Shown in pieces: positions 1,298 to 56,567 of a stretch of 64,000 nucleotides of DNA (positions within the stretch are counted from its first letter, which is position 1; each line of letters begins with the position of its first letter). Made by a program: the position numbers and the translations under genes. A model generated the notes under the pieces. It was not told the DNA's origin and ran no database searches. It was given only the letters and a program-made list of their open reading frames with translations. Source of the stretch: an uncultured Candidatus Binatia bacterium (GTDB lineage: Bacteria > Desulfobacterota > Binatia > UBA9968 > JAJDTQ01); contig OZ244070.1 of the NCBI GenBank assembly GCA_965215605.1, positions 1,760,001 through 1,824,000 on the forward strand. Direction: 5' to 3'.

Positions 1298-1334
1298 CCC
1301 CGCTCACCGGAAGCATTCACCCGGCATCTTCGGC

Positions 1335-1451: not shown

Positions 1452-1492
1452 GTACGATCCGCTGGGCGCGACAAGCATAAGACCCTGACTCT

Positions 1493-2635: not shown

Positions 2636-2663
2636 CCAAGGGTCTGGCCCGCACCCCACGACC

Positions 2664-2714
2664 GTCATTCCCGCGAAAGCATGTCCCGGACTTGATCCCG
2701 GGCGGGAATCCAGG
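2664..2714. repeat. Nested REP: GTCATTCCCGCGAAAGC..GGGAATCCAG interrupted by a CCCGGACTTGATCCCGG unit
   Basis: Direct reading of the intergenic sequence. Confidence 0.65.
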
Positions 2715-2736
2715 GGCGGCGGCCGGGGGGACACGA

Positions 2737-4320: not shown

Positions 4321-4325
4321 GGCCG

Positions 4326-4757: not shown

Positions 4758-4758
4758 G

Positions 4759-5385: not shown

Positions 5386-5507
5386 TAATCATGGACTTCA
5401 GGTAAACGCAGCCCCAGGACAACCCTTGCCGTTTCGGCGCCCGGCTTGTTTCCCGGCCTTCTACGTTCTATCCCAATAGAAGGGGCCGCGGGTTCCGGGA
5501 ATCATCC

Positions 5508-6287
5508 ATGCGCAGACAGATCGGACCGCTGGTGGTCGATGTCTTTCCACCGGAACGGAACAAGTTCCGGCCGCCCGTCGTCCTGGTCCACGGGCTGTGG
5601 GTGGGCGCTTGGTGCTGGCACGAGTGGGCCACCCGGCTGTGCAACCTGGGCTGGGAATGCTGGTCGCTCAATCTCAGGGAGCGCGACGGCGGCGCGCCGC
5701 AAACCCCCGAGGACACCGTGCGGGACTTGCGCGCGGTGCTGGGGGAGGCGGCCTTCCCGCCGGTGGTGGTGGGCCACGGGACCGGCGCGCGGCTGGCGTT
5801 GGCGGCGGCCCCTGACTGCGAGGTCACGGCCGCGGTCCTGGCCGCCCCGGACATCTCCCCCTACCTGGCCGCTTTGCCCAGGGCCATGCGCCTGCTCCGG
5901 CTCCGGTATCTGGCGCTGCTGGCGATGCGCCGGCGGATACTCATCCGGCCCGCGGACTTCCGGGAGCTGTGGCTCGGCACCGTTCCGCCGGGCCAGCAGC
6001 GGGACATCGTCGGTGCGCTGGTCCCGGAGCCGCCCCAGATGGTCCGGGCGCTGTTCGAACGCGGCATCGCGCTCCCGGAGTTGCGCTTCCCGGCGCTGGT
6101 GCTCGGCGGCGCCGAAGACCGGGCGGTGCCGAGCGAGGCCGCCCGCGACTTCGCCCGCGACATCGGCGCCGCCTACCTGGAGGCCGCCGGCCGGGGCCAC
6201 TGGCTGCTGGAAGACGGGGACCTGGTGAGCCGGACCCATAGCTGGCTCGTGCAGACTCTCGGAGAAGACATACAGGAGCCGTCATGA
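5508..6287 (+). CDS. Alpha/beta hydrolase fold protein, nucleophile Ser apparently absent
   Basis: VLVHGLW, GHGTG in place of GHSxG, ED..VP, GHW. Confidence 0.75.
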   Translation: MRRQIGPLVVDVFPPERNKFRPPVVLVHGLWVGAWCWHEWATRLCNLGWECWSLNLRERDGGAPQTPEDTVRDLRAVLGEAAFPPVVVGHGTGARLALAAAPDCEVTAAVLAAPDISPYLAALPRAMRLLRLRYLALLAMRRRILIRPADFRELWLGTVPPGQQRDIVGALVPEPPQMVRALFERGIALPELRFPALVLGGAEDRAVPSEAARDFARDIGAAYLEAAGRGHWLLEDGDLVSRTHSWLVQTLGEDIQEPS

Positions 6288-8036: not shown

Positions 8037-9416
<1,380 letters not shown>

Positions 9417-9503
9417 TTACCGTGGCCCCGTAACGGCATCTGCCTCCGGTGATGTCCGGCCGTTTGCACTCGGAGCGCCGATCCCACATGATGGTAACGT
9501 CGC

Positions 9504-9836
9504 ATGCCCTCGCCGAAACTACCGCAGCGCGCCCTGAATTACGGCCTGACGCTCGTCCTGGCCCTGATGCTGTCTTTTCTGGTCTTCGGCGAGTGGGGTC
9601 TCGTGCACTACCGGCGTTTGTCGGAAGAAAGACGGTCGCTCGAGGAACGGTCCCAGGCGCTGCAACGGGACAACGAGCTGTTGCGCGAGAAGATCTACCG
9701 GCTGAGGAAAGACGACCGATACCTGGAGAAAGTCGCCCGGGAACAACTCGGCATGGCCAAGGACGGCGAGATCATCTATCTGTTCCCGTCCAACGGGGTC
9801 AAGGAAACGGGTGGCGGCGCCCGGCCCCAAGATTGA
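9504..9836 (+). CDS. ftsB: Septum formation initiator FtsB/DivIC
   Basis: N-terminal TM, coiled coil, EKVARE.LGM.K.GE. Confidence 0.88.
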   Translation: MPSPKLPQRALNYGLTLVLALMLSFLVFGEWGLVHYRRLSEERRSLEERSQALQRDNELLREKIYRLRKDDRYLEKVAREQLGMAKDGEIIYLFPSNGVKETGGGARPQD

Positions 9837-9871
9837 CTTCATTTCCACGATAAAATAAGAGGTAACCCAGA

Positions 9872-9946
<75 letters not shown>

Positions 9947-9959
9947 ACCACTCCACCCC

Positions 9960-9988
9960 TGGACCCCGGATCAAGTCCGGGGTGACCG
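9960..9988. repeat. REP-like palindrome
   Basis: tggaccccggatcaagtccggggtgacc. Confidence 0.7.
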
Positions 9989-11065
9989 CTACGCGGCGCC
10001 GGTCAACCGGTCACCGGACAGGGCGTGCACCATGCGGCCCACCGAGATGGCGCCCACGGTCTTGCCCTTTACGTCCACCACCGCGGCATTGTCGTGCGGC
10101 GACGCCACCACCCGAGGCAATGCATCCTCCAGCAGCATCTCCGAAGGAATGGAGCAATCCTTGCCGGCCGGCTCCAGCGCGCGGGGCTCCTGCCCGTGGG
10201 GCTGGGTGGGCTCCATGATGGAGCCTACGCGGATCACCCGGCCGCGGTTGATGTTCTTGGTGAAGTTGGAGATGTAGTCGTCGCTGGGCTTCAGGACGAT
10301 CTCCTGGGAGTCGCCGTTCTGGACCACCTCGCCGTCGCGAAGGATGGCGATGCGGTCCCCCAGGGTGATGGCCTCTTCGAGGTCGTGGGTGACGAACAGG
10401 ATGGTGCGGTTGAGCTCCTGCTGAAGCTCCAGCAACAGCGTCTGCATGTCCGTGCGGATCAACGGGTCGAGGGCGCTGAAGGCCTCGTCCATCAGCAGAA
10501 TCTCCGCCTCCGTGGCCAGCGCCCGGGCGAGGCCCACGCGCTGCTGCATGCCGCCGGAGAGATGGTGCGGATAGGACGCCTCGTAGCCCGAGAGTCCGAC
10601 CCGCTCGATCCACCGCTCGGCCCGGGTATCGCATTCCAACCGCGCCACCCCCTGCATCTGCAGACCGTACCGCACGTTCTCCAGGATGGTCCGGTGGGGG
10701 AACAGCGCGAAGCGCTGAAACACCATGCTGACCTTGTGCCGCCGCAGGTGCTGCAGCGCGGCCTGATCCAGGCCGAGCACGTCCTGGCCGTCCACCAGCA
10801 CGGTCCCCTCGGTGGGGTCGATGAGCCGGTTGACGTGCCGCACCAGTGTGGACTTGCCGCAGCCGCTGAGCCCCATCACTACCTGGATGCTGCCCGGCTT
10901 GACCGTCAGGTTGATGTCCCGCAGCCCCAGCACGTGGCCGTGGGACTCCAGGAGTTCCTGCTTGTCCACGCCCTCCCGCACAAGGGGCATCACCGACGGG
11001 GGATCGTCGCCGAAGATCTTGTAGAGGGAATGGATTTCAATATTCGAAGCGCTTACCGTGGTCAT
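9989..11065 (-). CDS. proV: Glycine betaine/proline ABC transporter ATP-binding subunit
   Basis: True start MTTVSASNIEIHSLYKIFG at 11065; GLSGCGKS, LSGGMQQRVGLARAL, DEAFSALDPLIR. Confidence 0.92.
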   Translation of the reverse strand: MTTVSASNIEIHSLYKIFGDDPPSVMPLVREGVDKQELLESHGHVLGLRDINLTVKPGSIQVVMGLSGCGKSTLVRHVNRLIDPTEGTVLVDGQDVLGLDQAALQHLRRHKVSMVFQRFALFPHRTILENVRYGLQMQGVARLECDTRAERWIERVGLSGYEASYPHHLSGGMQQRVGLARALATEAEILLMDEAFSALDPLIRTDMQTLLLELQQELNRTILFVTHDLEEAITLGDRIAILRDGEVVQNGDSQEIVLKPSDDYISNFTKNINRGRVIRVGSIMEPTQPHGQEPRALEPAGKDCSIPSEMLLEDALPRVVASPHDNAAVVDVKGKTVGAISVGRMVHALSGDRLTGAA

Positions 11066-36461: not shown

Positions 36462-37499
36462 CTACCGGTAGTGCGCGTGGTGGCCGGCCACCGGCGCCGG
36501 GTCCACGGCCTTCAGGGCATCGGCGGAGCCGCCCAGGGCGGTGACGATGGTGCGGATGTTGGCGAGCATCATGCCGGTGTAGGAATGGACCGGGTCGCCG
36601 GCCTCCCCGGGGAGGTCATCGTCCCGCAGGTTGTCGACGAACGCGGTTTTCGCTTCCCGGGCGATCTGCCGGAGCACCGGGCTGGGGAACACCGCCGACC
36701 CGAACACCGCGGGCAACTGCTCCCGCTTCAACTGGTCGATGAGCCGGGCGACCTCCCGGGGACTGGGTTCCGCGAAGCTGGAGGGCTGTACCGCGCCGAT
36801 GACGCGGAAACCGTAGCGCTTGGCGAAGTAGGGCCACGAGTCGTGGTAGGTGAGGAGCCGGCGATTCCGCGGCGGTATGGTGGCCACGGCCGCGCCGGTG
36901 GCCTTGTCCAGCGCCTCGAGCTGCTTCAGGTAGCGTTCCGTGTTGGCCGCGTACACGGCCCTGCCCCCGGGGTCCAGGTCTGTCAGGGCGTCCCGCACCA
37001 GGCGCGCGTAGTTCATGACGTGGATCGGGTCGGGCCACAGGTGCGGGTTGGGATGCCCGTGGTCCTCGGGGAAGCTGAAGTCGAAAAGGTAGTCCTGTTC
37101 GGCGACGGTGTGGTCGGCCAGCAGCAGCACCGGCGTATCCGCCCGCTTGTTGGCGCGGGCCAGCTTGAGCGTGGGGATCTCCAGGTTGAGGCCGTTGAGG
37201 ATGATGAGATCCGCCCGCGCCATGGTCCGGGCCACGGAGGGGGCCGGCCGGAAAGTGTGGGAGTTCACGCCTTCCGGGACGATGCCGGCAACCCGCGCGC
37301 GATCCCCTGCCACGTTCTCCACGATGCTGGTGATGGGCGCCACCGTGGTGACCACCCGCACGGCCGCGGCGGAAAGCTGGGCCGGTACCGCCAGCATCAA
37401 CCCGAGCAGCAGCGCCAGCGCCGCACACGTCCGCGCGCCGCGGAGGCCCTGGCGCTCCGTGATTCCCGCCCGCCGGGTCATTCCCGCCCCCTCCGTCAT
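36462..37499 (-). CDS. Zn/Mn ABC transporter substrate-binding protein (set 1)
   Basis: SHTF.P, NGLNLE, NPHLW, YHDSW.YFA..YG; start uncertain because of REP invasion. Confidence 0.9.
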   Translation of the reverse strand: MTEGAGMTRRAGITERQGLRGARTCAALALLLGLMLAVPAQLSAAAVRVVTTVAPITSIVENVAGDRARVAGIVPEGVNSHTFRPAPSVARTMARADLIILNGLNLEIPTLKLARANKRADTPVLLLADHTVAEQDYLFDFSFPEDHGHPNPHLWPDPIHVMNYARLVRDALTDLDPGGRAVYAANTERYLKQLEALDKATGAAVATIPPRNRRLLTYHDSWPYFAKRYGFRVIGAVQPSSFAEPSPREVARLIDQLKREQLPAVFGSAVFPSPVLRQIAREAKTAFVDNLRDDDLPGEAGDPVHSYTGMMLANIRTIVTALGGSADALKAVDPAPVAGHHAHYR

Positions 37500-42642: not shown

Positions 42643-43317
42643 GTGGCAGGGAAGCGCACCGAAGTCTCTTCCGCTACGGAAGACTACCTCAAGGCCATCT
42701 ACAGTCTGGCGGAGGAGAACGACCAGGTCATCGCGGCGCGGGTGGCGGAGGACATCGGCGTGACGCCGTCGACCATGTTCAGCGCCCTGAGGCGGCTCGA
42801 GAAGGAGGAGTTCGTGCGGGTGGAACGCCGCAAGAACATCTACCTGACATCGAAGGGCCGTGACGTGGCCGAGGCCATCCTGCGCCGGCACTATCTCACC
42901 GAACGTTTGCTGACGGACCTCCTGGGCCTGGACTGGGTCACCGCTCATCAGGAAGCCCACCACCTGGAGCACGCCATATCGCCGGTGGTGGAGGAGCGCT
43001 TGGCCGCGATCCTCCACAATCCGTCCACCTGCCCCCACGGCAATCCGATTCCGGTAAAGGGGGAACCGTCTCCGCGCCGCGAGTGGATTCCCCTGAATAC
43101 GGCGGAGGCGGGCACCGAGGTCATCTTCCGCTGCATCACCGAGACCGGCGAGCGCGATGCGGTGCTGCTTTCGTTCCTCTACGACCACCAGGTCCGTCCC
43201 GGCACCAGCATCGACATTCTCGACGTTTCGCCGTCCCTCGGCACCATCAGCCTCAAGGTGGGAGCGCACGAGGTCGTCCTCGGCCTGGAGGCCGCCAAGA
43301 AGATCCACGTGCAGTGA
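42643..43317 (+). CDS. DtxR/MntR family metal-dependent repressor with FeoA/SH3 domain
   Basis: EDYLKAIY, RRHYLTE.LL, EAHHLEH, CPHGNPIP. Confidence 0.92.
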   Translation: MAGKRTEVSSATEDYLKAIYSLAEENDQVIAARVAEDIGVTPSTMFSALRRLEKEEFVRVERRKNIYLTSKGRDVAEAILRRHYLTERLLTDLLGLDWVTAHQEAHHLEHAISPVVEERLAAILHNPSTCPHGNPIPVKGEPSPRREWIPLNTAEAGTEVIFRCITETGERDAVLLSFLYDHQVRPGTSIDILDVSPSLGTISLKVGAHEVVLGLEAAKKIHVQ

Positions 43318-44810: not shown

Positions 44811-46244
44811 ATGCAGCCGGTAACCGACATGCGGAGCTTCATCGAGCGACTGGACGAGATGGGGGAGGTCAAGCGCATCGAGGGCGCGGATCTGGACACC
44901 GACGTGGGGGCGCTCACCGAGCACATGGGCGACATCGAGTCCCAGGCGCTCCTGTTCGACGGCTTCGCGGGGTTTCCCAAGGGCTTCCGCATCATCTCCA
45001 ACCTGTTCCGCACCTGCCCGCGCTCGGCGGTGGCCATGGGGCTGCCCACGGACGTCAAGGGGGTGGACTTCCTCCACGCCTGGCGCAAGCGCTCGCTGGA
45101 GTTCCAGCCGCTGCCCTACGAGCAGGTGGAAGGCGGGCCGGTGTTCGACAACCAGATGGAAGAGGACGAGGTGGACCTGACCCGGTTCCCGACCCCGCTG
45201 TGGCACGACCTCGACGGCGGCCGCTACATCGGCACCGGGTGCGGCGTCATCACCAAGGACCCGGAGTCCGGCGGCATCAACATCGGCACCTACCGGGTGA
45301 TGATCCAGGAGAAGAACAAGGTCTCGGTCAAGATGAACAAGGGCAAGCACGGGCGGCTGGCCATGGAGCGGGCCCACGCCCGGGGCGAGGCCCTGCCCGT
45401 GGCCATCTCGCTGGGACAGGAGCCCGCCGTGATGCTGGCGTCGCAGATGCCGCTGCCGCCGGCGGTGAACGAGTACGAGTTCGCCGGCTGGATGCAGGGC
45501 AGCCCCATCCCGGTGGTCCGGGGCGCCGTCACCGGCCTGCCCATCCCCGCCAACGGCGAGGTGGTGCTGGAAGGCGAGATCCCGCCGCTGCCGCCGGAGC
45601 AGTTGCCCAAGGAAGGCCCCTTCGGCGAATGGCCGGGCTACTACACCGAGGCCACCGAGGGGGACGTGCCGCTCATGACCGTCAAGCGGGTCTATTACCG
45701 CGACGACCCCATCATCCTGGGCGCCCCGCCGGTGCGGCCGCCCAACAGCTACCTGCCCATCCCCCTGGGCGCCATCACGCTCTGGGAGCAGTTGGAGAAG
45801 GCCGGCATCCCGGACGTGACGGGGGTCTGGGGCTTCGTCTACGGCGGCCAGCCCGGGCCGTTCACCGTGATCTCCATCAAGCAGCGCTACACCGGCCACG
45901 CCAAGCAGGCCCTGCTGGTGGCGGCCGGCGCCCGGGCCGGCGCCTACGGCGGCAAGATGGTGGCGGTGGTGGACGACGACGTGGACATCACCAACCCTGG
46001 CGAGGTCATCTGGGCCATCTCCACCCGCTGCGACCCGCGCGAGGGCATCGACATCGTGAAGAACGTGTGGGCCTCGGTGTGCGAGCCGGTCATCTCTCCC
46101 ACGGACCGGGACACCAAGGGCTACGTCACCGACCGCGTGCTCATCGACGCCTGCCGCCCGTACCAGTGGATCGACCGCTTCCCGCCGGTGAACGCGTTCG
46201 AGCCGCAGTACAAGGAGCAGATCGCCAAGAAGTGGGGGGTATGA
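44811..46244 (+). CDS. UbiD family (prFMN) decarboxylase
   Basis: DGGRYIGT, N.GTYR, EVVLEG, EGPFGEWPGYY, VVDDDVD. Confidence 0.92.
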   Translation: MQPVTDMRSFIERLDEMGEVKRIEGADLDTDVGALTEHMGDIESQALLFDGFAGFPKGFRIISNLFRTCPRSAVAMGLPTDVKGVDFLHAWRKRSLEFQPLPYEQVEGGPVFDNQMEEDEVDLTRFPTPLWHDLDGGRYIGTGCGVITKDPESGGINIGTYRVMIQEKNKVSVKMNKGKHGRLAMERAHARGEALPVAISLGQEPAVMLASQMPLPPAVNEYEFAGWMQGSPIPVVRGAVTGLPIPANGEVVLEGEIPPLPPEQLPKEGPFGEWPGYYTEATEGDVPLMTVKRVYYRDDPIILGAPPVRPPNSYLPIPLGAITLWEQLEKAGIPDVTGVWGFVYGGQPGPFTVISIKQRYTGHAKQALLVAAGARAGAYGGKMVAVVDDDVDITNPGEVIWAISTRCDPREGIDIVKNVWASVCEPVISPTDRDTKGYVTDRVLIDACRPYQWIDRFPPVNAFEPQYKEQIAKKWGV

Positions 46245-46257
46245 AGGAGCGGCCCGC

Positions 46258-46881
46258 ATGAAGGCGGTTCTCTGGAGAACGCTCGGAATCGCGGTCCTGG
46301 CGCTGGCGTTCGTCATGGCGCCGGGGACGGAGGCGCCGGCCCACAAGTCCATCCTCAAGGTCGAGTTCGCGGAACGGCGCGAGTTGAACGTCCTCATCGA
46401 CAACTTCGCCCTCACCGACCAGAACGGCGAGCGCGTGGAGTTCCGGAAGCTCCGGGGCAAGCCGGTGGTGATCAACTTCATGTACACGTCGTGTCCGGAC
46501 GTGTGTCCGCTGCTGACGGCGAGCCTGAAGATCCTTCGGGACCACATGAAGCCCGCGGAGGTCAGGGACATCCGCTTCCTGTCCATCACCGCGGATCCGG
46601 AGGTGGACACGCCGGCGGTGCTCAAGGCCTACAGCAAGCGGCACGAGGCCGACGCCCCCAACTGGTCGTGGCTCACCGGCGAGGCCCGGGAACTGGCGCC
46701 GGTGTGGCAGGGTTTCGGCGTGGGCGTGAAGCGGCTGGCCCGGGGCCTCATCGACCACACCACGCTTACGGTGGTGGCGGATGCCAACGGGTTCATGCGT
46801 TTTGCCTACTTCGGCTCCGCTCCGGACCCGGACGTGCTGCTGAAGGACCTGCGGGCGCTCGCGAAGAAGGGGGCCACCTGA
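46258..46881 (+). CDS. SCO family copper chaperone
   Basis: FMYTSCPDVCP, DPEVDTP, IDHT. Confidence 0.9.
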   Translation: MKAVLWRTLGIAVLALAFVMAPGTEAPAHKSILKVEFAERRELNVLIDNFALTDQNGERVEFRKLRGKPVVINFMYTSCPDVCPLLTASLKILRDHMKPAEVRDIRFLSITADPEVDTPAVLKAYSKRHEADAPNWSWLTGEARELAPVWQGFGVGVKRLARGLIDHTTLTVVADANGFMRFAYFGSAPDPDVLLKDLRALAKKGAT

Positions 46882-46994: not shown

Positions 46995-49088
46995 GTGGAA
47001 TCGCTGTTGAGCAGCATCGCCTGGGAGACTCTGGTGGTCTTTTACGAGGCCTCGGTGTACCTCCTCATCGGCTTTTTCGTGGCCGGGCTCCTGCACGTGT
47101 ATCTGCCGGCGGACCTCATCGCGCGGCACCTGGGCCGGAACGATGCCCGCTCTGTGGGTCTTGCGGCGCTCTTCGGCGCGCCGATCCCGCTGTGCTCCTG
47201 CGGGGTCTTGCCAGCCGCGGCGTCCTTGAAGAGGCAGGGCGCCGGGCGGGCGCCGCTGGTCTCGTTTCTGATCTCCACTCCCGAGACCGGGGTGGACTCC
47301 GTGGCGCTCACCTACGGGCTCATGGGTCCGGTCATGGCCGTGGTCCGTCCCGTCGTGGCGGTGGTGACGGCTGTGATAGCCGGCATAGCCTCCATCGGCG
47401 TCAAGGAGGACGCAAGCCTGCCGCCGCCGGCCGACGTCACCTGCGACGATGACTGCGCGGCACCGGCGGAGGACTCGTGCGACGAAACCTGCGCGCCCGG
47501 CGGCGCGGCACCGGCAGGCCCGCGCCGTTTCCTCCATTCACTGGACTACGGCTTCACCGCGGTTCTGGACGACATCGCGCTGTCGCTCCTCGTCGGCATG
47601 CTGCTGACCGGCATCCTGGCGGGGCTTCTGCCCGACAATTTCTTTGACGAGGTGCTCGGCTGGGGTTCGGGGCTCATGCCCATGCTGGCCATGATCGTGG
47701 TGGGCCTGCCGCTCTACCTCTGCGCCAGCGCCTCCACCCCCATCGCCGCGGCGTTCATGGCCAAGGGCCTGTCGCCCGGCGCGGCGCTCGTGTTCCTGCT
47801 GGTGGGGCCGGCCACCAATCTTGCCACCATGACCGTGGTGGGGCAGCTCCTGGGCCGCCGTCATCTCGCCGTCTACCTCGGCGCCATCGTGCTGGTGAGC
47901 CTGGCCGCCGGACTGCTGGTGGACGCGACCCTGGCGGACGCGATCCACGTGCTCCCCTTCGGCGAGTTGGGGCAGGACGCCGACTGGATCTTCGCGCTCA
48001 AGGCGCTTTCAGCCGTGGCGCTGGTCCTGCTGCTGCTCCGGAGCTTCATGCGCAAGGGCCCTCGCGCGCTCTGGCGGGAGACCGCCCAACAGCTCCTGGA
48101 CACGGCCCGGGCGTTGAGGGCCTTCCGCCCCGCCAACCTGCTCCGGGGGCCGGTGCTCGCGGCCGTGCTGGCCGTTGCGCTGCTCGGCGCCATCCCCACG
48201 TTTACCCTGGTGGTGGGACCCGGCCAGAAGGGTGTCGTCCAGCGCTTCGGCCGGGTGGTGGCCGCGGATCTCCAGCCCGGACTGTACTTCCACCTGCCGC
48301 CGCCGTTGGGCAACGGCACCGCGGTGGACGTGGCGCTGATCCGTCAGGTTACGGTGGGCTTCCGGGGGAACGTCAACGGGGCCAGACCGGTGCTGGATGA
48401 CCAGGCGTTCTACCTGACCGCGGACGGCAACGTCATCGATATCCGGGCCGCGGTCCAGTACCGCGTCCGCGACCCGGCGGTGTACGCCCTGGGCGTCGAG
48501 GAGACCCCCGCGGTGGTGCTAGGGCTGGCCCGGCGGGAGCTCGTGAGCCTGCTGAGCCGCAAGCCCATCGACCGGATCTACACCGTGGACCGGAGGACCA
48601 CGGAAACGGAGCTGCGGGATCGCCTGGCGGCGCGCCTCGCGGCTTTGGGCGTGGGCAGCGAGATCCTGGACGTCCGGCTCCTGGATGTCCACGCGCCGGG
48701 GAGGGTCCACGACGCCTTCCGCGACGTGGCCAGCGCGCTGGAGGATCGCCAGCGCGACATCCACGTGGCCACGGGCGGGGCGACCCAGTCCACGGTGGCG
48801 GCCTCGGGCGAGGCGGAACGCATCACGCAAAGGGCCGCGGGCCGGGCCGTGCGCGAGGTCAGGGTGGCCGCGGGCCGGGCCGTCGCGTTCCGGCAGACCG
48901 CGGCGGCCCATGCCGCGAGCCCCGCGGTCACCGAAACCCGGCTCTACCTGGAGGCGCTCGAGCATTCCCTCGAGATGCCCCGAAAATTTGTCTACATGCC
49001 CGGCGCGGGCGGCGGTGACATCGATCTCTGGGTCGGCGCTCCGCCCATGGACTTCATGACTCCCGCGCCGTCGAGCCGACATCGATAG
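46995..49088 (+). CDS. DUF318 (SO_0444/ArsP-like) permease fused to an SPFH/HflK-like domain
   Basis: PIPLCSCGVLP, STPETGVDS, PLYLCASASTP, GPATN; C-terminal GVVQRFGR..PGLYFHLP, LTADGNVID, V.DAF.DV.SA, TRLYLE. Confidence 0.85.
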   Translation: MESLLSSIAWETLVVFYEASVYLLIGFFVAGLLHVYLPADLIARHLGRNDARSVGLAALFGAPIPLCSCGVLPAAASLKRQGAGRAPLVSFLISTPETGVDSVALTYGLMGPVMAVVRPVVAVVTAVIAGIASIGVKEDASLPPPADVTCDDDCAAPAEDSCDETCAPGGAAPAGPRRFLHSLDYGFTAVLDDIALSLLVGMLLTGILAGLLPDNFFDEVLGWGSGLMPMLAMIVVGLPLYLCASASTPIAAAFMAKGLSPGAALVFLLVGPATNLATMTVVGQLLGRRHLAVYLGAIVLVSLAAGLLVDATLADAIHVLPFGELGQDADWIFALKALSAVALVLLLLRSFMRKGPRALWRETAQQLLDTARALRAFRPANLLRGPVLAAVLAVALLGAIPTFTLVVGPGQKGVVQRFGRVVAADLQPGLYFHLPPPLGNGTAVDVALIRQVTVGFRGNVNGARPVLDDQAFYLTADGNVIDIRAAVQYRVRDPAVYALGVEETPAVVLGLARRELVSLLSRKPIDRIYTVDRRTTETELRDRLAARLAALGVGSEILDVRLLDVHAPGRVHDAFRDVASALEDRQRDIHVATGGATQSTVAASGEAERITQRAAGRAVREVRVAAGRAVAFRQTAAAHAASPAVTETRLYLEALEHSLEMPRKFVYMPGAGGGDIDLWVGAPPMDFMTPAPSSRHR

Positions 49089-49098
49089 AGGGATTGCC

Positions 49099-50085
49099 AT
49101 GGCGAAACGTATCGGCGGGTTGCTCATCCTGGCGCTGGTCCTGGGCGCCGGCGCCACCTCGTTCGTGGTGGTAGACGAGAAGAGCCACGCGGTCATCACC
49201 CAGTTCGGGAAGCCGGTGTCGGTGCTGAGCCAGGCCGGTTTCTATCTCAAGCTGCCGGTGCCGTTCCAGCGCGCCAACGTGCTCGACAAGCGCATCCTGA
49301 TCACCAACACTCGCGAGACCGAGCTGCTGACGGCGGACAAGAAGAACGTGCTGGTCTCCACGTACATTTCCTGGAAGATCGCCGACCCGGTGCGGTACCT
49401 GGCCGCGCTGCGCAGGCGGGACTTCGCGGAGAGCCGCCTGGCCGCGCTGGTGCAGTCGGAGCTGGGCAGCGCGCTGGGCGACCGGCCCTTCGGGACGATC
49501 CTGGGGACCGCCGGCAACGGCGCCAGCCTGGCCGAGCTGGAGGGCTCGGTGGAGCGCGCCGTCTCCAGGGTGGCGCGGGAAGACCTCGGGATCGAGGTGG
49601 TCAGCCTGGGGGTGACCCGCCTCATCTTCCCGCCGCAGAACCTGGACAGCGTCTTCGCTCGCATGCGCGCCGAGCGCGCGCGCATCGCCCGGGGCCATCG
49701 CTCGGAGGGCCGGGCCGAAGCCCAGAAGATCGCCGCCCGCGCCGAACGGGAACGGGCGCGGATCATCGCCGACGCGGAGGCCAAGGCGGCCATGCTGCGG
49801 GGCCGGGGCGAAGCGGAAGCGGCGCGCATCTACGCGGAAGCCTACGAAGGGCACGCCGGGTTCTATCGCTTCCTGCGGACGCTGGAAGCCTACAAGAAGG
49901 TGCTGAACGAGAAGACCACGTTGGTCCTGCCCGCGGACTCCCCGTTTCTCGAGATCCTGACATCGAGGGTTCCCGGCGCCGTCCCGCCGGCGGATGGCGG
50001 GAAGAATGTGCCGGCGGTCTCCGGCCAGGACGTGGGTGCGGGGCCGGCGGCGCCCGCCCGGGACCGGGAGAAATCGGGTTCATGA
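49099..50085 (+). CDS. hflC: HflC-like SPFH protein
   Basis: VITQFGKP, LTADKKNV, RMRAERARIA...RSEG, FYRFLRTLEAY. Confidence 0.88.
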   Translation: MAKRIGGLLILALVLGAGATSFVVVDEKSHAVITQFGKPVSVLSQAGFYLKLPVPFQRANVLDKRILITNTRETELLTADKKNVLVSTYISWKIADPVRYLAALRRRDFAESRLAALVQSELGSALGDRPFGTILGTAGNGASLAELEGSVERAVSRVAREDLGIEVVSLGVTRLIFPPQNLDSVFARMRAERARIARGHRSEGRAEAQKIAARAERERARIIADAEAKAAMLRGRGEAEAARIYAEAYEGHAGFYRFLRTLEAYKKVLNEKTTLVLPADSPFLEILTSRVPGAVPPADGGKNVPAVSGQDVGAGPAAPARDREKSGS

Positions 50086-50990
50086 CCGGCCGCCTGCGAT
50101 ACCGGCTGCTGCTCTCCGCCGCCGTCCTTCTGGCGGGCTGGCTGACCCTGGGGATCTACAATGTCGAGTCGGACGAGAGCGCGGTGGCGTACGTTCTCGG
50201 CAGGGCCGTGGGGCGGGACGTCCTCCCGGGCATCCACTGGAACCCGCCGTGGCCGCTGGGCCGTGTGGTGGTGGCCCGGACGGCCACGAACTTCCTCATG
50301 CCGGTGGAACACACGGAGCCGCAAGGCCCCGCCGGGAGCGAGCCGGAGTCCCTCTGGCTCCTGGGCGACACCAACGTCATCGCCGGGAAGCTGGGAATCC
50401 AGTACAGCATCCGCAGCCTGACGCGCTTCGAGGTCTCGCACGAGGATCCGCGGGAACTGCTGCGTCGGGCAGGCGGCCAGGTCGTGACGCGGTTTCTCGC
50501 GGGCGAGAACGTGGACGCCGCGCTGACCGCCCGGCGCAACGACCTGCTGGACGCGGTGCAGCGGCAGGTTCAGGCAATCCTCGATGATCACGGCTCGGGC
50601 ATCGAGATCCTGTCGGTGAACGTGGAGACGCTGGCGCCGCCGCGGCAGGGGGGCGTGCGGCAGGCGTTCCAGGAGGTCCAGAGCGCCTTGGCGGACAAGG
50701 AGCGGGTGGTGGACGAGGCGCGCGCCGACCGCTCCCAGGTCTTCGCGGAAGCGGAGGGGGAGGCGGAACATCGTGTGACCCAGGCCGAGGCTGCGCGTCA
50801 CCGGCGGGTGGAGATCGCCAAGGGCGAAGGGGAACGCTTCCGCCGCCTGGCCTTCGAGCACCGCAAGACGCCCAGGCTCACCGAGGAACGGCTTTACCTC
50901 GAGACCATCGAGGAGGTCCTGCCGCGCATGGATACCTACGTCGTCCAGTCCGGACCGGACGGCAAGGTGAACCTGCGCGTGGTCCGGTGA
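50082..50990 (+). CDS. hflK: HflK-like SPFH protein
   Basis: PGIHW..PWP, V.QAFQEV, EA.GEA, ERLYLET.EEVL. Confidence 0.85.
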   Translation: MTGRLRYRLLLSAAVLLAGWLTLGIYNVESDESAVAYVLGRAVGRDVLPGIHWNPPWPLGRVVVARTATNFLMPVEHTEPQGPAGSEPESLWLLGDTNVIAGKLGIQYSIRSLTRFEVSHEDPRELLRRAGGQVVTRFLAGENVDAALTARRNDLLDAVQRQVQAILDDHGSGIEILSVNVETLAPPRQGGVRQAFQEVQSALADKERVVDEARADRSQVFAEAEGEAEHRVTQAEAARHRRVEIAKGEGERFRRLAFEHRKTPRLTEERLYLETIEEVLPRMDTYVVQSGPDGKVNLRVVR

Positions 50991-51013: not shown

Positions 51014-51058
51014 TTGACAAGCCATTCTAGTGAGAATAGGAACTCATTATCTATTCTC
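51014..51058 (+). promoter_or_regulatory. Promoter with Fur/Zur-family-like palindrome
   Basis: TTGACA at 51014; gagaatag-gaactcattat-ctattctc inverted repeat upstream of znuA. Confidence 0.55.
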
Positions 51059-51078
51059 CTTTGAGGGGGTATTCACAC

Positions 51079-52236
51079 ATGAACAGACTGGTAGGTCTTT
51101 TACTTGCGATCGTTGTGAGCCTTTGGATCGGCGCACACCCGGCGCTCGGCAGCGATGCTCCAGTGGGTGTGGTCGCCAGCGTCCTGCCCATCGCCTTTGT
51201 CGCTCAGGAGGTGGGAGGCGATCGCGTCAAGGTGGATGTGCTGGTGCCGCCGGGCGCGAGCCCGCACACGTTCGAACCGGTACCGAGCGACATGGTCAAG
51301 CTGCAACGCGCCCGCCTGTTTCTTCGGGTCGGCGCGGGTCTGGACGCATGGTCCGACAAGCTTCGGGGCGCGGCTCCCGCCGGACTCGAGACGCTGACCC
51401 TGATCGCCGTCCCGGGAATGAAGCCGCTCGAGGGCGGTCATGATCACGATCACGGCCACGGGAAGAAGCCCGCGATGGAGCACGACGACCATGGCCATGA
51501 GGAGAAGCGTGCAGAGAAGCACGATGACCACGGCCACGAAGAGAAGCATGCAAAGAAGCAGGATGACCACGGCCACGAAGAGAAGCATGCAAAGAAGCAG
51601 GATGACCATGGCCACGAAGAGAAGCATGCAAAGAAGCAGGATGACCACGGCCATGACGAAAAGCACGCGAAGAAGGAAGACGACCACGGCCACGCCGAGG
51701 AGCCCGGAGAGGGAATGAATCCCCACTTTTGGCTGGACCCGATACGGATCAGGGATGCGGTGGTTCCCGTGATCGTCGAACATCTCGTTGAAGCGGACCC
51801 GGCGGGCAAGGACTACTATGAGAAGCGCGGCAAGGACTTTCACCAGCGATTGACGGCGCTGGATATTCAGATCCGGCGGGAGCTTGCCAAGGCGAAGGGC
51901 CGGAAGTTCGTTGCGTTTCACAGCGCCTGGCCCTATTTCTCCGAGCGGTACAACGTCGAGGAAGTCGCGGTGGTCCAGGAGTTCGCGGGCGAGGAACCCA
52001 CCCCCAAGGAGGTGGCCGCGCTGGTGCAAGGTGCGCGTGCGGCAGAGATACGGAGCATCCTGGTGGAGCCGCAGCTCAGCCCGCGCGTGGCACAGACCAT
52101 CGCGAACGAGTTCGGCGGCGGGACGGTGATGGTGGACCCGGTAGGAGACCCCGGCGATCCGGCGCGTTCCACCTACGAAAAACTGATGCTGTTCAACGCC
52201 CGCGCCTTCGCGCAGGCGTTGGGGGGACATAATTGA
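51079..52236 (+). CDS. znuA: Zinc ABC transporter substrate-binding protein with His-rich repeat loop (set 2)
   Basis: SPHTFEP, NPHFWLDP, FHSAW.YF. Confidence 0.9.
   Translation: MNRLVGLLLAIVVSLWIGAHPALGSDAPVGVVASVLPIAFVAQEVGGDRVKVDVLVPPGASPHTFEPVPSDMVKLQRARLFLRVGAGLDAWSDKLRGAAPAGLETLTLIAVPGMKPLEGGHDHDHGHGKKPAMEHDDHGHEEKRAEKHDDHGHEEKHAKKQDDHGHEEKHAKKQDDHGHEEKHAKKQDDHGHDEKHAKKEDDHGHAEEPGEGMNPHFWLDPIRIRDAVVPVIVEHLVEADPAGKDYYEKRGKDFHQRLTALDIQIRRELAKAKGRKFVAFHSAWPYFSERYNVEEVAVVQEFAGEEPTPKEVAALVQGARAAEIRSILVEPQLSPRVAQTIANEFGGGTVMVDPVGDPGDPARSTYEKLMLFNARAFAQALGGHN
51484..51693 (+). repeat. 39-bp coding tandem repeat (DDHGHEEKHAKKQ), 5 units plus a partial
   Basis: Units start at 51484, 51523, 51562, 51601, 51640 and 51679. 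Confidence 0.95.
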
Positions 52237-53021
52237 CGGAACGCAACGACGGAGTCGTGGTAGGGCTGAACGGCGTGTCGGTGGAGTTGGGGGGGCACAG
52301 CGTCCTGCACGACATCAACTTCGACGTGCACGAGGGCGGGTTCGTGGGCATCGTGGGCCCCAACGGGGCGGGCAAGACCACGCTGCTGCGCACGATCCTC
52401 GGCCTCGTGCCGGTCGTGAGCGGCAGGGTGGAGGTGTTTGGCCTCCCGCCGGGCCGGAACGGCTCTCACGCCATCGGCTACGTACCGCAGCGCCAGAGCG
52501 TTGCCGACAACTTCCCGGCCACCGTCGGCGACGTGGTGATGATGGGGCGGCTGCGGCACCTCGGGCTCATGAGGTTCCCCGGGCGGAAGGACTGGCAGCG
52601 GGTGGATGACAGCCTGTCCCTCGTGGGCATGCTGGACCGCAAGGACCGTGCGGTGGGGCGGTTGTCCGGCGGCGAGCAGCGCCGCGCCATGCTGGCCCAG
52701 GCGCTGTGCGCCAGCACGCGCCTGCTGGTGCTCGACGAGCCCACGGTGGGCCTCGACCTTCCCGCCGAGCATGAGTTCTACGCACTGCTGCGGAAGCTCA
52801 TACGCGATCTGACGCTGACCATCGTGGCGGTGTCGCACGATCTCGTGGCCTTGGCCGGCGAGACCGACGAGCTGATCTGTATCAACCACCGCATGCACAT
52901 CCACGGCAACGCCGAGGATGTGATCCACAGCCACGCCATCCGCGAGGCCTACTGTTGCGAGTTCGACTTCCTGGCCGGCGAGATTGCCCATCACGAGGGC
53001 CACGACCACGTCGAGTCGTGA
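52233..53021 (+). CDS. znuC: Zinc ABC transporter ATP-binding subunit (set 2)
   Basis: GPNGAGKTT, YVPQ, LSGGE, His/Cys-rich C-terminus. Confidence 0.9.
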   Translation: MTERNDGVVVGLNGVSVELGGHSVLHDINFDVHEGGFVGIVGPNGAGKTTLLRTILGLVPVVSGRVEVFGLPPGRNGSHAIGYVPQRQSVADNFPATVGDVVMMGRLRHLGLMRFPGRKDWQRVDDSLSLVGMLDRKDRAVGRLSGGEQRRAMLAQALCASTRLLVLDEPTVGLDLPAEHEFYALLRKLIRDLTLTIVAVSHDLVALAGETDELICINHRMHIHGNAEDVIHSHAIREAYCCEFDFLAGEIAHHEGHDHVES

Positions 53022-53066
53022 CCGGCGCTTCCTTCGCGGGTTGAACGTCGTCCGATAGCCCCCCTC

Positions 53067-53867
53067 ATGTTCGATTTTGCCTTCATGCAGCGCGCCCTGG
53101 CGGCGGCGGTCCTGGTGGGCCTCCTGTGCGGGATACTGGGCTTTTTCGTGGTCTTGCGGCGCCTGGCGTTCATCGGCGTGGGCATTTCCCATTCGGCCAT
53201 CGGGGGCGTTGCCATCGGCATCCTGGCGGGCTGGAACCCGCTCCTCACGGGCGCCTTCTTTGCCGTCGCCGTGGCCCTGGGCATCGCGCTGGTCAGTCAG
53301 AGCGACCGCATCAGCGAGGACACCGTCATCGGCGTGTTCTTCTCGGGGTCCATGGCGCTGGGGATCGTGCTCTTCAGCATGAAGAGCGGCTACCAGCAGG
53401 ATCTCTTCAGCTACCTCTTCGGCAACGTGCTGGCCATCTCCACCGGGGAGCTCGTTGCCCTTGCCTGCGCGAGCGCGGCGATCATGGCGGGCATCGTGCT
53501 GACCTTCAAGGAGCATCTGCTGATCGCCTTCGACGAGGAAGTGGCCTCGGCCTACGGCCACAAGGTCGTCGCGCTCAACGTGCTGTTGCTGGTGTTGCTG
53601 GCCTTGACCGTGGTCATCGGCGTGCGGCTGGTGGGCCTGCTGCTGATCCAGGCCCTGCTGGTGGTGCCGGCGGCCGTCGCGGCGCTGTGCGTGATGAATT
53701 TTCGCTGGCAGGTGCTGCTGTCGGCGCTGGTCGGGTCCGTCTCCGGCGTCGCGGGTCTGGTGCTGGCGTATCAACTGGACATCGCCGCCGGCGGAGCCAT
53801 CGTGCTGGTGGCCGTCGCTCTCTTCTTCATGACACTGTTGGCCCGCACGTTGAGCAGGGGTGACTAG
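53067..53867 (+). CDS. znuB: Zinc ABC transporter permease (set 2)
   Basis: FMQRAL, GFFVVLRRLAF.G..ISH, YLFGNVL. Confidence 0.9.
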   Translation: MFDFAFMQRALAAAVLVGLLCGILGFFVVLRRLAFIGVGISHSAIGGVAIGILAGWNPLLTGAFFAVAVALGIALVSQSDRISEDTVIGVFFSGSMALGIVLFSMKSGYQQDLFSYLFGNVLAISTGELVALACASAAIMAGIVLTFKEHLLIAFDEEVASAYGHKVVALNVLLLVLLALTVVIGVRLVGLLLIQALLVVPAAVAALCVMNFRWQVLLSALVGSVSGVAGLVLAYQLDIAAGGAIVLVAVALFFMTLLARTLSRGD

Positions 53868-54029
53868 TGTCCTGTCTCACAAATGGCGTTATGAATCTGC
53901 GGGTCCTTTTTTGCCGTCGGCTGCGTTGCTCTTCCTCGCGTGGTGCCCGCCACTGCTCGTCATCGCGCCTTGCCGACAACAAAAATGCCCTCGCATCTTC
54001 ATAACGCTGTTTGTGAGACAGGACACTAG
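53864..54029. mobile_element. 166-bp MITE-like palindromic element with CTAG termini
   Basis: Perfect 20-bp TIR ctagtgtcctgtctcacaaa/tttgtgagacaggacactag; imperfect pairing continues inward. Confidence 0.8.
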
Positions 54030-54829
54030 CGAGTCGACGGGCGCCCGCGCCGGCGGCCCATCCGCGTCACCACGAACAGCGCCAGCGCCGCCGTCACGAT
54101 GGAGGGGCCCGAGGGCGTATCCAGCGTTGCCGAGGCCAACAGTCCCCCGACGATGGCCAAAATACCCGCCGCGGCTGACGCGAGGGCCATCTTCTCGGGG
54201 CTCGACGCGAAGCGCCGGACCGTGGCCGGCGGTATCACCAGTAGCGCGACGATCAGCAGTATCCCCACGATCTTCACCGCCACCGATATGAGCGCCGCCA
54301 CCAGGATGCCGAACAGCAGCCGCGCGCGCTCCGGCCGCAGTCCCGCCACCGTGGCGAGATCGAGGCTGACGGTGGCCGCCAGCAGCGGACGCCAGATCCA
54401 CCACAACACCGCCAGGACGGCGGCGCCGCCCGCCCAGATGACCACGAGGTCCGTGCGCGTCACGGCCAGGATGTCGCCGAAGAGCAGCGCGTGCAGGTCG
54501 AACCGCATGCTGGGGAAGAACGCCAGGACCACGAGCCCCAGCGAGAGGCCGCCATGGGCGAGCAAGCCGAGGATGGTGTCGGTGGGCAGGGTGTCGCTCC
54601 GTTCCAGGAAGAACATGATAAACACGACGGCGGAAGCGGTGGCGAAGATGCCGATGGCCAGGTCGATGTCGGCCACGATGGCCACCGCGACGCCCAGCAG
54701 GGCCGAGTGGGCGATGGTCTCGCCGAAGTAGGCCAGCCGCCGCCACACCACGAAACAGCCCGTCGGCCCGGTCACCAGCGCCAGCCCGACACCGGCCAGC
54801 AGCGCGCGCGTGAAGAAGTCGTCCAGCAT
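54026..54829 (-). CDS. znuB: Zinc ABC transporter permease (set 3)
   Basis: MLDDFFTRAL, GCFVVWRRLAYFGET.AH, LFGDIL. Confidence 0.92.
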   Translation of the reverse strand: MLDDFFTRALLAGVGLALVTGPTGCFVVWRRLAYFGETIAHSALLGVAVAIVADIDLAIGIFATASAVVFIMFFLERSDTLPTDTILGLLAHGGLSLGLVVLAFFPSMRFDLHALLFGDILAVTRTDLVVIWAGGAAVLAVLWWIWRPLLAATVSLDLATVAGLRPERARLLFGILVAALISVAVKIVGILLIVALLVIPPATVRRFASSPEKMALASAAAGILAIVGGLLASATLDTPSGPSIVTAALALFVVTRMGRRRGRPSTR

Positions 54830-54831
54830 GC

Positions 54832-55533
54832 TCAGTCCGACGGGCCGGGCCCGGGACTCGTTCCCTGGGCCGGGAAGCCCTGGATGCCGAAAGGCGGGGT
54901 ATCGTGTTCGTGGGGTACCAGGACCACCAGGTCGTCTCCTGTGTCCATGGCCTTCTGGAGGTCATGAGAAATGATCAGAACGCCGCAGCCCAGGTCCCGC
55001 CGAATCCCTTCGATCAGGTCATGCACGACATCCGTTCCGGTGGCGTCGACGCCCTGCTCCGGTTCGTCGAGGACCAGCAGGTCGGGCCGGTGAATCAGCG
55101 CCCGAGCCAGCATCAGCCGCTGGAATTCGCCCCCCGACAGGGTCGTGACCGGCGGGTCGCCCAGCCGTTCGAGGCCCACCGCCGCCAAGGCGGAGTCGAT
55201 TCTGTCCGCGGGGAAGCGGCCGGTCAGTGCCATCAGGCGGCGCACGGTCATGGGCAGGGTCGCGGTCACCTGGAGTCTTTGCGGGACGTAGCCCACTTCC
55301 AGCGAGGGCGCCCGCGTCACCTGCCCCTCGGCGACGTCGATCAACCCCAGAACCGCCTTGACGCAGGTGGACTTGCCGGCGCCGTTGGCGCCGATGAGGT
55401 AGACCATCTCGCCGCGCGTCACCTTGAGGTCCACGTGACGGATGATCCAGCGCTCGCCCCGCCGCACGCCGATGTTGCGGGCGTCGACGAGCAGGCCGGA
55501 AGCGGCCGACTGTGTGTCCGGTCTATCCATCAT
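54832..55533 (-). CDS. znuC: Zinc ABC transporter ATP-binding subunit (set 3)
   Basis: GANGAGKST, YVPQ, LSGGEFQR, ISHDL; C-terminus looks short. Confidence 0.85.
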   Translation of the reverse strand: MMDRPDTQSAASGLLVDARNIGVRRGERWIIRHVDLKVTRGEMVYLIGANGAGKSTCVKAVLGLIDVAEGQVTRAPSLEVGYVPQRLQVTATLPMTVRRLMALTGRFPADRIDSALAAVGLERLGDPPVTTLSGGEFQRLMLARALIHRPDLLVLDEPEQGVDATGTDVVHDLIEGIRRDLGCGVLIISHDLQKAMDTGDDLVVLVPHEHDTPPFGIQGFPAQGTSPGPGPSD

Positions 55534-55628
55534 CGGTGTGTGACAGCGCGGGGCGACGGATCGCGCTTGATCATTTGGAGCACTCGGGGTAGTTTTCGCA
55601 AAAATTCCAAGCGGACTCAAGGAGCGAC

Positions 55629-56567
55629 ATGATGAAACGAATTCTTGCGACGTTCCTGTTTGCCGTCATGATCGCCGCGACCACGACGGTCGGCGCCGCG
55701 GGTCGGGTCGTGGCGACGTTCAAGCCGGTGCATTCGCTGGTGAGCGCGGTCATGGCCGGGGTGGGCGAGCCGTACCTGATCATGAAGGACGCTGCCACGC
55801 CGCATAGCTATCGCATGCGGCCGTCCGACGCCGGGGTGATCGGGAAGGCTCGGGTCATTTTCATGATCGGCGACCTGGTCGAAAGCTCCCTGGCCGGGCC
55901 TATCCACAAGCTCGGCGGCAAGGCCCGGGTGGTGAAGCTGGCCGAGGTGCCGGGGCTGGTGCGCCAGCCGCTCCGCAAGGGGGGTGCGTTCGAGGACGAA
56001 GGGCACGATCATGGACCTGGGCACGCCCACGGCCATGAGGACGAGGCTTTTGACCTGCACGTGTGGCTCGACCCGGTGAATGCCGGCTTGATGGCGCTCG
56101 CCATAGCCGGCACCCTGTCCGAGATCGATTCGGCCAATGCCGCGAGGTACGAAGCCAACGCCAACGCCCTGGTGGCCCGGCTGGACGAGTTGACCGCGCA
56201 AATCGCCGCGGAGCTGGCGCCGGCGCGCGACAAACCCTTCATCGTGTTTCACGATGCGTATCGCTACTTCGAGGACCGCTTCGGGCTGAAAGCCGTGGGC
56301 TCGGCGGTGGTCAGCACCGGCCGGTCGCCCGGCGTCCGCCGTGTCAGGGAACTGCGCAAAAAGGTGCGTGAGCTCGGGGTGGTATGCGTGTTCGCCGAAC
56401 CTCGGTACGACCCGCGTTTCGTCAGGCTCATCACCGAAGGCACGAAGGCGCGGGGCGGCACGATGGATCCCGCGGGCATCGCCGTCAAAGCGGGCCCCGA
56501 GATGTACTTCAGCCTTCTCCGCAACATGGCCGCGTCCTTCAAGGCGTGCCTGGCGCCAGCGGGTTAG
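55629..56567 (+). CDS. znuA: Zinc ABC transporter substrate-binding protein (set 3)
   Basis: KPVHSLV..VM.GV, PH.Y.MRPS, D.HVWLDP, FHDAY.YFE. Confidence 0.92.
   Translation: MMKRILATFLFAVMIAATTTVGAAGRVVATFKPVHSLVSAVMAGVGEPYLIMKDAATPHSYRMRPSDAGVIGKARVIFMIGDLVESSLAGPIHKLGGKARVVKLAEVPGLVRQPLRKGGAFEDEGHDHGPGHAHGHEDEAFDLHVWLDPVNAGLMALAIAGTLSEIDSANAARYEANANALVARLDELTAQIAAELAPARDKPFIVFHDAYRYFEDRFGLKAVGSAVVSTGRSPGVRRVRELRKKVRELGVVCVFAEPRYDPRFVRLITEGTKARGGTMDPAGIAVKAGPEMYFSLLRNMAASFKACLAPAG

Follow-up and report, generated by a model that had tools for sequence, protein, structure and literature searches.

Among the closest described relatives of the system treated here are the HflK/HflC-FtsH assemblies of Escherichia coli (7vhp, 7vhq, 7wi3, 9cz2, 9paw), in which a K-type and a C-type subunit are encoded side by side. 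The same pairing is found in a three-gene cassette that lies in a 64,000-nucleotide stretch of DNA from an uncultured Candidatus Binatia bacterium (contig OZ244070.1, positions 1,760,001 to 1,824,000 of the forward strand; hereafter the window). Whereas E. coli HflK/HflC comprises two subunit types, the cassette encodes three, in the order F-C-K, and in the first of them, F, a polytopic metal permease replaces the cytoplasmic tail of E. coli HflK. The reading considered best, and held with somewhat better than even confidence, is that the gene products form a heteromeric ring of the HflK/C type to which a Zn/Cu exporter is tethered, the ring being an accessory and the system serving zinc homeostasis.

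The permease half of F belongs to the SO_0444 family, of which a CSC motif is the signature (10.1101/2022.07.06.499078). With members such as Shewanella Shew_3410, F shares this motif, a second Cys motif and an inter-repeat loop rich in metal ligands. The phenotyped members are stand-alone proteins tied to ZntR or metal stress. Thus, a Shewanella DUF318/arsP-like gene beside ZntR is reported to matter under zinc stress (10.1101/072470), and a Nitratiruptor member of the family to be induced by Cd and Cu (PMC10092412). F, by contrast, is fused to an SPFH part and often belongs to one string of genes with zinc importers.

A metal transporter next to SPFH genes is also encoded by Pseudomonas aeruginosa PA2439-PA2435, where three adjacent SPFH genes (K-like, C-like, K-like) accompany HmtA, but there the transporter is a separate gene, a P-type ATPase and an importer. 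Under zinc depletion, PA2437, PA2438 and PA2439, which are of the HflC/HflK family, and hmtA are up 5.6-14.4 fold, the SPFH genes 9-14 fold (PMC4542158); the PA2438 and PA2439 protein levels rise as well (PMC11761036), and the PA2439 promoter is shifted by Zur (10.1101/2021.05.28.446167). A 2026 study of strain PA14 describes three SPFH proteins encoded in one operon (PaFlo5-7), probably PA2437-2439, and in the sections covered here reports no zinc test (PMC13086221).

SPFH rings or domes associated with a channel or partner membrane protein, as proposed for the cassette, are known for stomatin-aquaporin-1 (9zd2) and for the SPFH-NfeD pair QmcA-YbbJ (8z5g). Their clients are bound non-covalently or are an NfeD partner, whereas the client of the cassette is part of the same polypeptide. 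The role of SPFH rings (HflK/C, stomatin, prohibitin, flotillin) toward the membrane proteins they enclose is a long-standing question in which clients are hard to define; in the cassette, the client would have been fixed to its scaffold by evolution, and with two unrelated metal exporters. No published description of a permease-SPFH or CDF-SPFH fusion was found in the literature searched, subscription journals and supplements lying outside its coverage, and within that coverage an earlier statement that no characterised example of the fusion exists holds.

A conserved fusion gene and its two partners

An earlier reading of the window, made from the letters and ORFs (open reading frames) and called here the sequence-only reading, had described a 697-aa fusion followed by hflC after a 10-bp gap and by hflK with a 4-bp overlap. 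The ORF listing, Pfam and NCBIfam bear out all three genes, the overlap reads ATGA, the CSC and LCAS motifs and the loop TCDDDC..DSCDETC are present in the F translation, and the flanks described, SCO upstream and znuACB downstream, agree with Pfam and the ORFs (Table 1). In Pfam, F matches ArsP_1 over residues 17-309 (E 2.1e-41) and Band_7 over residues 406-593 (5.4e-19), and Band_7 is also matched by the partners Cm and K2. Residues 14-349 match NF033936, the "SO_0444 family Cu/Zn efflux transporter" model, with 354.9 bits for a cut-off of 300 and over profile positions 3-349 of 351. Cm passes the hflC model TIGR01932 (182.8 bits, cut-off 134.4), whereas residues 406-665 of F (143.3 bits) and K2 (149.3 bits) are both just below the cut-off of 159.4 of the hflK model TIGR01933. 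The database names "Cu/Zn efflux transporter" and "HflK family protein" each conceal one half of F.

Table 1. Coordinates of the cassette, its parts and its flanking genes (positions in the window)
Feature	Position	Strand	Basis and remarks
Fusion gene F, 697 aa: SO_0444-family permease + HflK-like SPFH subunit	46995..49088	+	ORF, Pfam, NF033936
Permease domain of F (residues 1-349)	46995..48041	+	AlphaFold2 model: two repeats, each a broken helix with a Cys motif + helical hairpin; ninth helix
CSC motif C67-S68-C69	47193..47201	+	At the break of the second helix; invariant in 24 fused and in 77 fused and free sequences
Inter-repeat loop (residues 135-174; CDDDC..CDETC), acidic, Cys-rich, predicted disordered	47397..47516	+	Predicted local distance difference test (pLDDT), composition
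LYLCASAS motif (residues 240-247)	47712..47735	+	Alignment; break of the equivalent helix of repeat 2
Basic linker (residues 350-385; 8 K/R), presumed cytoplasmic	48042..48149	+	Composition, alignment, model
HflK-like part of F: transmembrane helix (about 386-408), SPFH domain, long coiled coil, C-terminal segment	48150..49085	+	
HflC-like partner Cm, 328 aa	49099..50085	+	TIGR01932; gene order
Free HflK-like partner K2, 302 aa	50082..50990	+	TIGR01933 below cut-off; gene order; trees
Promoter-like TTGACA (51014-51019) + operator-like palindrome (51031-51049) of znuA	51014..51058	+	
znuA, znuC, znuB, zinc-uptake ABC system	51061..53867	+	Pfam, ORFs; znuA likely starts at ATG 51079
ubiD-family decarboxylase + SCO1/SenC	44811..46881	+	Pfam; upstream syntenic backbone, probably outside the system

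The second half of F has the layout of HflK, with an N-terminal transmembrane helix, an SPFH domain, a coiled coil and a C-terminal segment, as seen in alignment, model and Foldseek search. Residues 388-672 align to residues 82-347 of E. coli HflK (7vhp_E; phmmer E 1.3e-18), and the top Foldseek matches of this part (7vhq_E, 9cz2, 9paw) are all HflK, while a look-up of the SPFH part in the ESM Atlas returned generic Band_7 clusters only.

The fusion is real and old, and the three-gene cassette is conserved. The best 120 of 1960 database matches (E<=0.001) all combine PF01145 with PF03773, at 637-780 aa and 47-100% identity. An alignment of 24 fused relatives shows invariant residues in the permease part (PLCSCG, LYxCASASTP), at R353 and Q366 of the linker and all along the SPFH domain and coiled coil; C243, A244, T248 and P249 are invariant across 77 fused and free permease sequences. 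Stand-alone F-type SPFH proteins are rare, with 27 short matches of which the best come mostly from contigs of 1-2 kb. A locus scan with one genome per species returned 80 permease loci, and in 19 of them the permease continues in frame into an SPFH part. An HflC-like and then an HflK-like gene follow in all 16 fused loci with enough DNA downstream; two further loci break off within the HflC-like gene, and one (L093) has the HflC-like gene upstream instead. No unfused permease locus has a neighbouring SPFH gene (0/61). Domain architecture and operon conservation, which the sequence-only reading had named for checking, both favour one conserved unit. By name, the hosts of fused loci are Myxococcota/Deltaproteobacteria, Eiseniibacteriota, Acidobacteriota, Gemmatimonadota, Planctomycetota, Rokubacteria and one "Spirochaetales" bin.

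Within the genus of the window's organism, 18 other genomes were compared. Nine carry the full-length fusion (82-94% identity), three the permease only and five HflK-level matches only, and one, 76% complete, has none of these. The window and six other full loci examined share the order ubiD-sco-fusion-hflC-hflK-znuACB, and the three permease-only genomes have ubiD-sco-permease-znuACB, with ORFs of 360, 374 and 371 aa that stop at three points just past the ninth helix. The three SPFH parts are thus gained or lost together, and the permease can remain without them. Since it stays intact in these three species, the ring must be dispensable for the permease. The genus offers natural controls, in genomes with the whole cassette, with only the permease or with no part of it, and these make the question of what an SPFH ring does to its client testable.

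The permease-only forms of these three species are also the only support found for regarding the fusion as an assembly or annotation artefact, due to a lost stop codon, or as a decaying gene. This explanation can be ruled out, its probability being practically nil, by the full-length fusion in the best 120 of 1960 relatives and in nine of 18 genus genomes and by the invariant residues kept in both halves and in the linker.

The trees, which are quick searches supported by SH-aLRT (Shimodaira-Hasegawa-like approximate likelihood ratio test) values only, point in the same direction. In a tree of 68 SPFH sequences, F, Cm and K2 display identical sub-clades, as expected of co-inherited genes. F is monophyletic in two larger trees, of 122 and 124 sequences (96 and 82), and Cm groups with the C clan (100). 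K2 groups with canonical HflK rather than with F, and canonical HflK and HflC have K2 and Cm as their nearest relatives. The sequence-only reading had interpreted the locus as a three-subunit SPFH cage covalently carrying a metal permease for metal handling rather than proteolysis. Of this, one conserved, co-inherited unit made of the permease and three SPFH parts stands (16/16 vs 0/61, congruent sub-clades, joint loss); the cage and its function are taken up below as proposals.

Transporter folds and the proposed ring

The AlphaFold2 model of full-length F (pLDDT 75.3) predicts a helical permease with a disordered stretch at residues 141-173 (pLDDT <50), a long helix at 330-376, a transmembrane helix at 385-403, the SPFH domain and then a helix of about 70 residues. 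For the permease domain alone, a model built with 77 sequences reached a pLDDT of 87.4 and a predicted template modelling score of 0.86. Its best structural match is ArsB (10tp_A: Z 12.3, root-mean-square deviation 5.1, 271 aligned), although for helical bundles a Z under about 13 can reflect a common arrangement. Other matches include Pho90, VcINDY, YdaH, INDY, CNT and TRAP; the thirteen top rows (Z 6.7-12.3) all belong to the ion-transporter superfamily and the next match drops to Z 5.0, such values not being decisive for helical bundles. An elevator-type transporter is suggested by the model, with the Cys motifs placed where the equivalent helices are broken. The inter-repeat loop of F contains 10 Asp/Glu and 4 Cys; in the 24 relatives it is acidic, and where the window's clade has Cys, most others have His (HDHDH).

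HflK has its N-terminus inside and its SPFH part in the periplasm. By analogy with this topology, and given the eight Lys/Arg residues of segment 350-385, the linker of F would lie in the cytoplasm and its SPFH part in the periplasm.

A second type of cassette emerged when the HflC-like protein was searched against 301 genomes of the order of genome G006. A match in G250 scored 201.8 bits, against some 140-160 bits for canonical HflC matches, and its locus encodes a 541-aa fusion of Cation_efflux (CDF) with Band_7, followed by HflC-like and HflK-like genes. The CDF + Band_7 architecture comprises 34 protein clusters that are without the ZT_dimer domain carried by the free CDF matches of the same list. 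No CDF-SPFH protein was found at E<=1e-25 in a 400-genome sample of the class of G006, a sample that does not establish absence from the class. Among 80 metagenome loci, 74 have a CDF with an adjacent SPFH part, 71 of them in one open frame according to a test on high-scoring segment pairs. Where the loci leave room, an HflC-like and then an HflK-like gene follow in 55 of 55, and an HflC-like gene in all eight with room for one gene.

Like the F cassette, the CDF-SPFH cassette, found by database name in Thiothrix nivea and Marinimicrobium, has an exporter fused to the N-terminus of the first of three SPFH subunits. It differs in having an unrelated transporter fold, in the lack of the cytoplasmic ZT_dimer and in its neighbours, which are PpiD- and HtrA-like instead of zinc importers. 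The C partners of ArsP-type and CDF-type cassettes intermix in the trees of 122 and 124 sequences, and the free K partners of both types cluster apart from canonical HflK (support 97 and 81, the first of these groups including five CDF-fused rows). At the base of the K group, the CDF-fused SPFH parts branch in scattered positions and form no single clade with F. From these trees, the partner subunits appear to be shared between the cassettes and the transporter to differ. The presence of an unrelated exporter in the same fused position strengthens the idea of a tethered transporter.

As to the surroundings of CDF-type cassettes, no ZnuA or ZIP was found among the 36 ORFs immediately flanking 20 of them; PpiD/SurA-like peptidyl-prolyl isomerases (PPIases) occur in seven of these loci and HtrA-like proteases in two. 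Large PPIC-type PPIase genes of the PpiD/SurA-like kind stand directly beside the cassettes of L156, L158, L169, L193, L197, L212 and L165, and an AAA ATPase gene adjoins the G250-like cassette of L138. By tblastn, SCO lies near six CDF-type loci, all of one clade and at a distance of 3-5 kb.

In the mechanism proposed, F, Cm and K2 would form a specialised three-subunit assembly of the HflK/HflC type. F would be a K-type subunit with a thiol-lined SO_0444 permease in place of the cytoplasmic tail and a basic linker of about 35 residues ahead of the transmembrane helix. If K-type and C-type subunits alternate around the ring as they do in E. coli HflK/C, the K positions would be divided between F and K2, with the SPFH domains and coiled coils on the periplasmic side. 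Anything from one to several permease domains would then be kept at the patch of membrane belonging to the ring. The metal exported would most likely be Zn(II) and/or Cu(I), moved by an elevator-type permease, and the ring would serve to confine, stabilise or regulate this permease, as an accessory unneeded for transport as such. The comparisons establish the architecture and its conservation, the common inheritance and loss of the three SPFH parts, the tie to zinc importers by gene order and the parallel CDF-type cassette; ring assembly, topology, substrate, direction of transport and the role of the ring are inferences from them.

The role of FtsH has to be weighed against this accessory ring. 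The cassette could be an HflKC paralogue that still docks FtsH, the tethered permease being a substrate or a protected client, so that the level of the exporter would be set by proteolysis. K2 and Cm are indeed closest to canonical HflK and HflC, and K2 orthologues of distant phyla pass the HflK cut-off with 183-220 bits. One cassette-bearing genome (G004) showed no other hflK, and the PpiD-like, HtrA-like and, in one case, AAA ATPase neighbours of the CDF-type cassettes fit such a role. The window's genome has a single FtsH over the cut-off, at C1:2394665. This gene lies about 0.59 Mb from the cassette, none is found within the 64-kb window, as the sequence-only reading had noted, and no linkage of ftsH to the cassette is thus seen in this genome. 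Moreover, a canonical pair separate from the cassette, whose existence that reading had wished to see confirmed, stands at C1:2.586 Mb (hflK 296.7 bits, hflC 245.4 bits), by which the possibility that the cassette genes are the only hflKC of the genome is rejected. Such a pair is also present in four of five other cassette-bearing genomes, making the unit additional to canonical hflKC; this coexistence in five of the six genomes examined suggests a separate job. Coupling to FtsH is regarded as unlikely, though it deserves serious consideration. A second hflK-hflC pair is carried by a small contig of the window's genome (C2:27483-28960, against C1:2586682-2588156), its HflK 89% identical; given an estimated contamination of 5.74%, it may come from a related strain rather than be a paralogue.

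Zinc importers, SCO and alternative functions

Gene order links the cassette to zinc homeostasis in many lineages. The flanks of 17 fused loci outside the genus were annotated (91 ORFs, called in high-GC flanks with a filter on third-position GC that may miss small genes). In five loci znuACB directly follows the HflK-like gene, and in four a ZIP transporter adjoins the cassette; at the junctions between cassette and importer, stop and start codons overlap or almost touch in 8-9 of the 17 loci, as judged by eye and with putative starts. Among the znuACB loci, a CobW_C (COG0523-like) protein and an S14 paralog are encoded downstream in L018 and L023, one each. Two unfused permeases that branch next to the fused ones (L057, L091) also adjoin znu genes. 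In the other eight fused loci the importer is not next door, and several have instead Fe/Mn superoxide dismutase, TPR proteins, M1 peptidases or TonB receptors.

Regulation was approached through the sequence before znuA. The window has a palindrome there, TGAGAATA-N3-(T)TCTCAATA, with a degenerate right half, and all 10 genus loci examined have a single copy of the genus form TGAGAATA-N3-TTCTCAATA; znuA also has its own TTGACA. What had been called a Zur-like box is better described as a real and conserved operator-like palindrome. A matrix built from the genus sites gave none before ubiD, sco or the permease in the genus loci. Around the cassettes of 16 loci from other lineages it likewise gave no site, to which little weight attaches as the matrix is genus-specific.

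The junctions with znuA or ZIP, together with the CobW_C and S14 genes of L018 and L023, are what a function in zinc starvation would predict. The permease would then import zinc, provide it to enzymes of the periplasm or, like a safety valve, relieve zinc shock at times of full importer induction, and it would be co-expressed with ZnuABC or ZIP under a Zur-type regulator. The P. aeruginosa trio with HmtA, induced by zinc depletion and with a PA2439 promoter shifted by Zur (PMC4542158, PMC11761036, 10.1101/2021.05.28.446167), also speaks for it. However, no Zur-type box precedes the fusion gene in the genus or, by the genus matrix, in other lineages, the experiments reported for the family indicate resistance or efflux (10.1101/072470, PMC10092412), and the Pseudomonas-type trio is a separate SPFH lineage. 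Overall, a starvation function is judged rather improbable.

The last of these points relies on locus L219, taken to stand for the P. aeruginosa locus by layout only. At 8338-10380 on the minus strand it has a 680-aa gene with some six or seven hydrophobic segments, whose first 350 residues match no Pfam family and are fused to Band_7; this gene heads an SPFH trio followed by a P-type ATPase. In one of the trees, its C-like subunit falls outside the module and canonical C together (95), and the two K-like subunits form a pair that lies outside the whole K group (98). Orthology of the cassette with the Pseudomonas-type trio is not supported, and the L219 locus appears to be an analogue. The cassette may help to explain zinc-regulated SPFH trios in organisms like P. 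aeruginosa.

A copper route confined to the genus is suggested by the SCO1/SenC gene (46258-46881; CPDVC motif) directly upstream of F, with a spacer of about 25-30 bp in two relatives. The permease would export Cu(I) to the periplasm for SCO1/SenC and the assembly of cytochrome oxidase, for which the Cys-type loop of the window's clade, as opposed to His in most others, and the Cu/Zn of the family name may also be invoked. But ubiD-sco-znuACB persists without any cassette in four genus genomes, so that sco and ubiD are backbone and not partners, and none of the 19 fused loci from other lineages has SCO beside its cassette. The SCO flank therefore looks incidental, and the copper route is quite unlikely.

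Several observations weigh against a tethered exporter on an accessory ring as the best account. On the permease tree the fused state requires at least four changes, so the history includes fissions or repeated fusions. The three species that keep the permease alone can do without the ring, eight of the 17 loci outside the genus lack an adjacent zinc importer, and the sole conserved operator in the genus stands between the cassette and znuA. That members of an "efflux" family should be co-transcribed with importers is a paradox for both the export direction and the substrate, and the neighbours of the CDF-type cassettes would suit a role in envelope protein quality control better than one in zinc homeostasis. 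Finally, F and K2 score just short of the HflK cut-off, and module C appears set apart from canonical HflC in one of two trees only (support 94 in one, 0 in the other).

A bolder variant would turn the SPFH dome into a periplasmic "metal vault", loaded by its own tethered exporters of the ArsP or CDF type and buffering or storing Zn/Cu beside the importers that retrieve it. It is judged very unlikely, but if it were true, cages of the HflK/C type would have been adapted repeatedly as solute containers rather than as protease regulators.

Further features of the window and of the genus loci

Genes for metal homeostasis abound in the region. A 20-kb span inside the window holds three ZnuA-type ABC systems, at 36462-37499(-), 51061-53867(+) and 54026-56567. 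The ZnuA next to the cassette (ORF 51061-52236; Pfam ZnuA 240.9 bits) carries a long His-rich insert in which a His/Asp/Lys-rich unit (..DDHGHEEKHAKKQ..) recurs about four times in nearly the same form. The gene at 42643-43317 encodes a DtxR/IdeR-like repressor with a FeoA domain, and two Fur-family genes stand 16 kb (C1:1744177) and 53 kb (C1:1707121) ahead of the window start.

Between sco and the permease, the spacers of L222, L223 and L225 range from about 25 to 225 bp across genomes, and some hold a GC-rich inverted repeat (..gcgtccttcgacttcgct..) that resembles a small repetitive extragenic element. In L221 (G719:C1:2519000-2529000, minus strand, 1222-5545), the first permease-SPFH cassette is joined at a distance of about 10 kb by a second, diverged one, where an 874-aa fusion ORF joins a 34% identical permease to an SPFH part and is accompanied by an HflC-like gene (35%) and another K-like gene. 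The window's genome has no match to this second cassette, whereas G721, G722 and G713 do. UbiD-family paralogues are numerous in the genus, with 5-12 matches to the window's UbiD per genome in G706-G718 (E<=1e-100).

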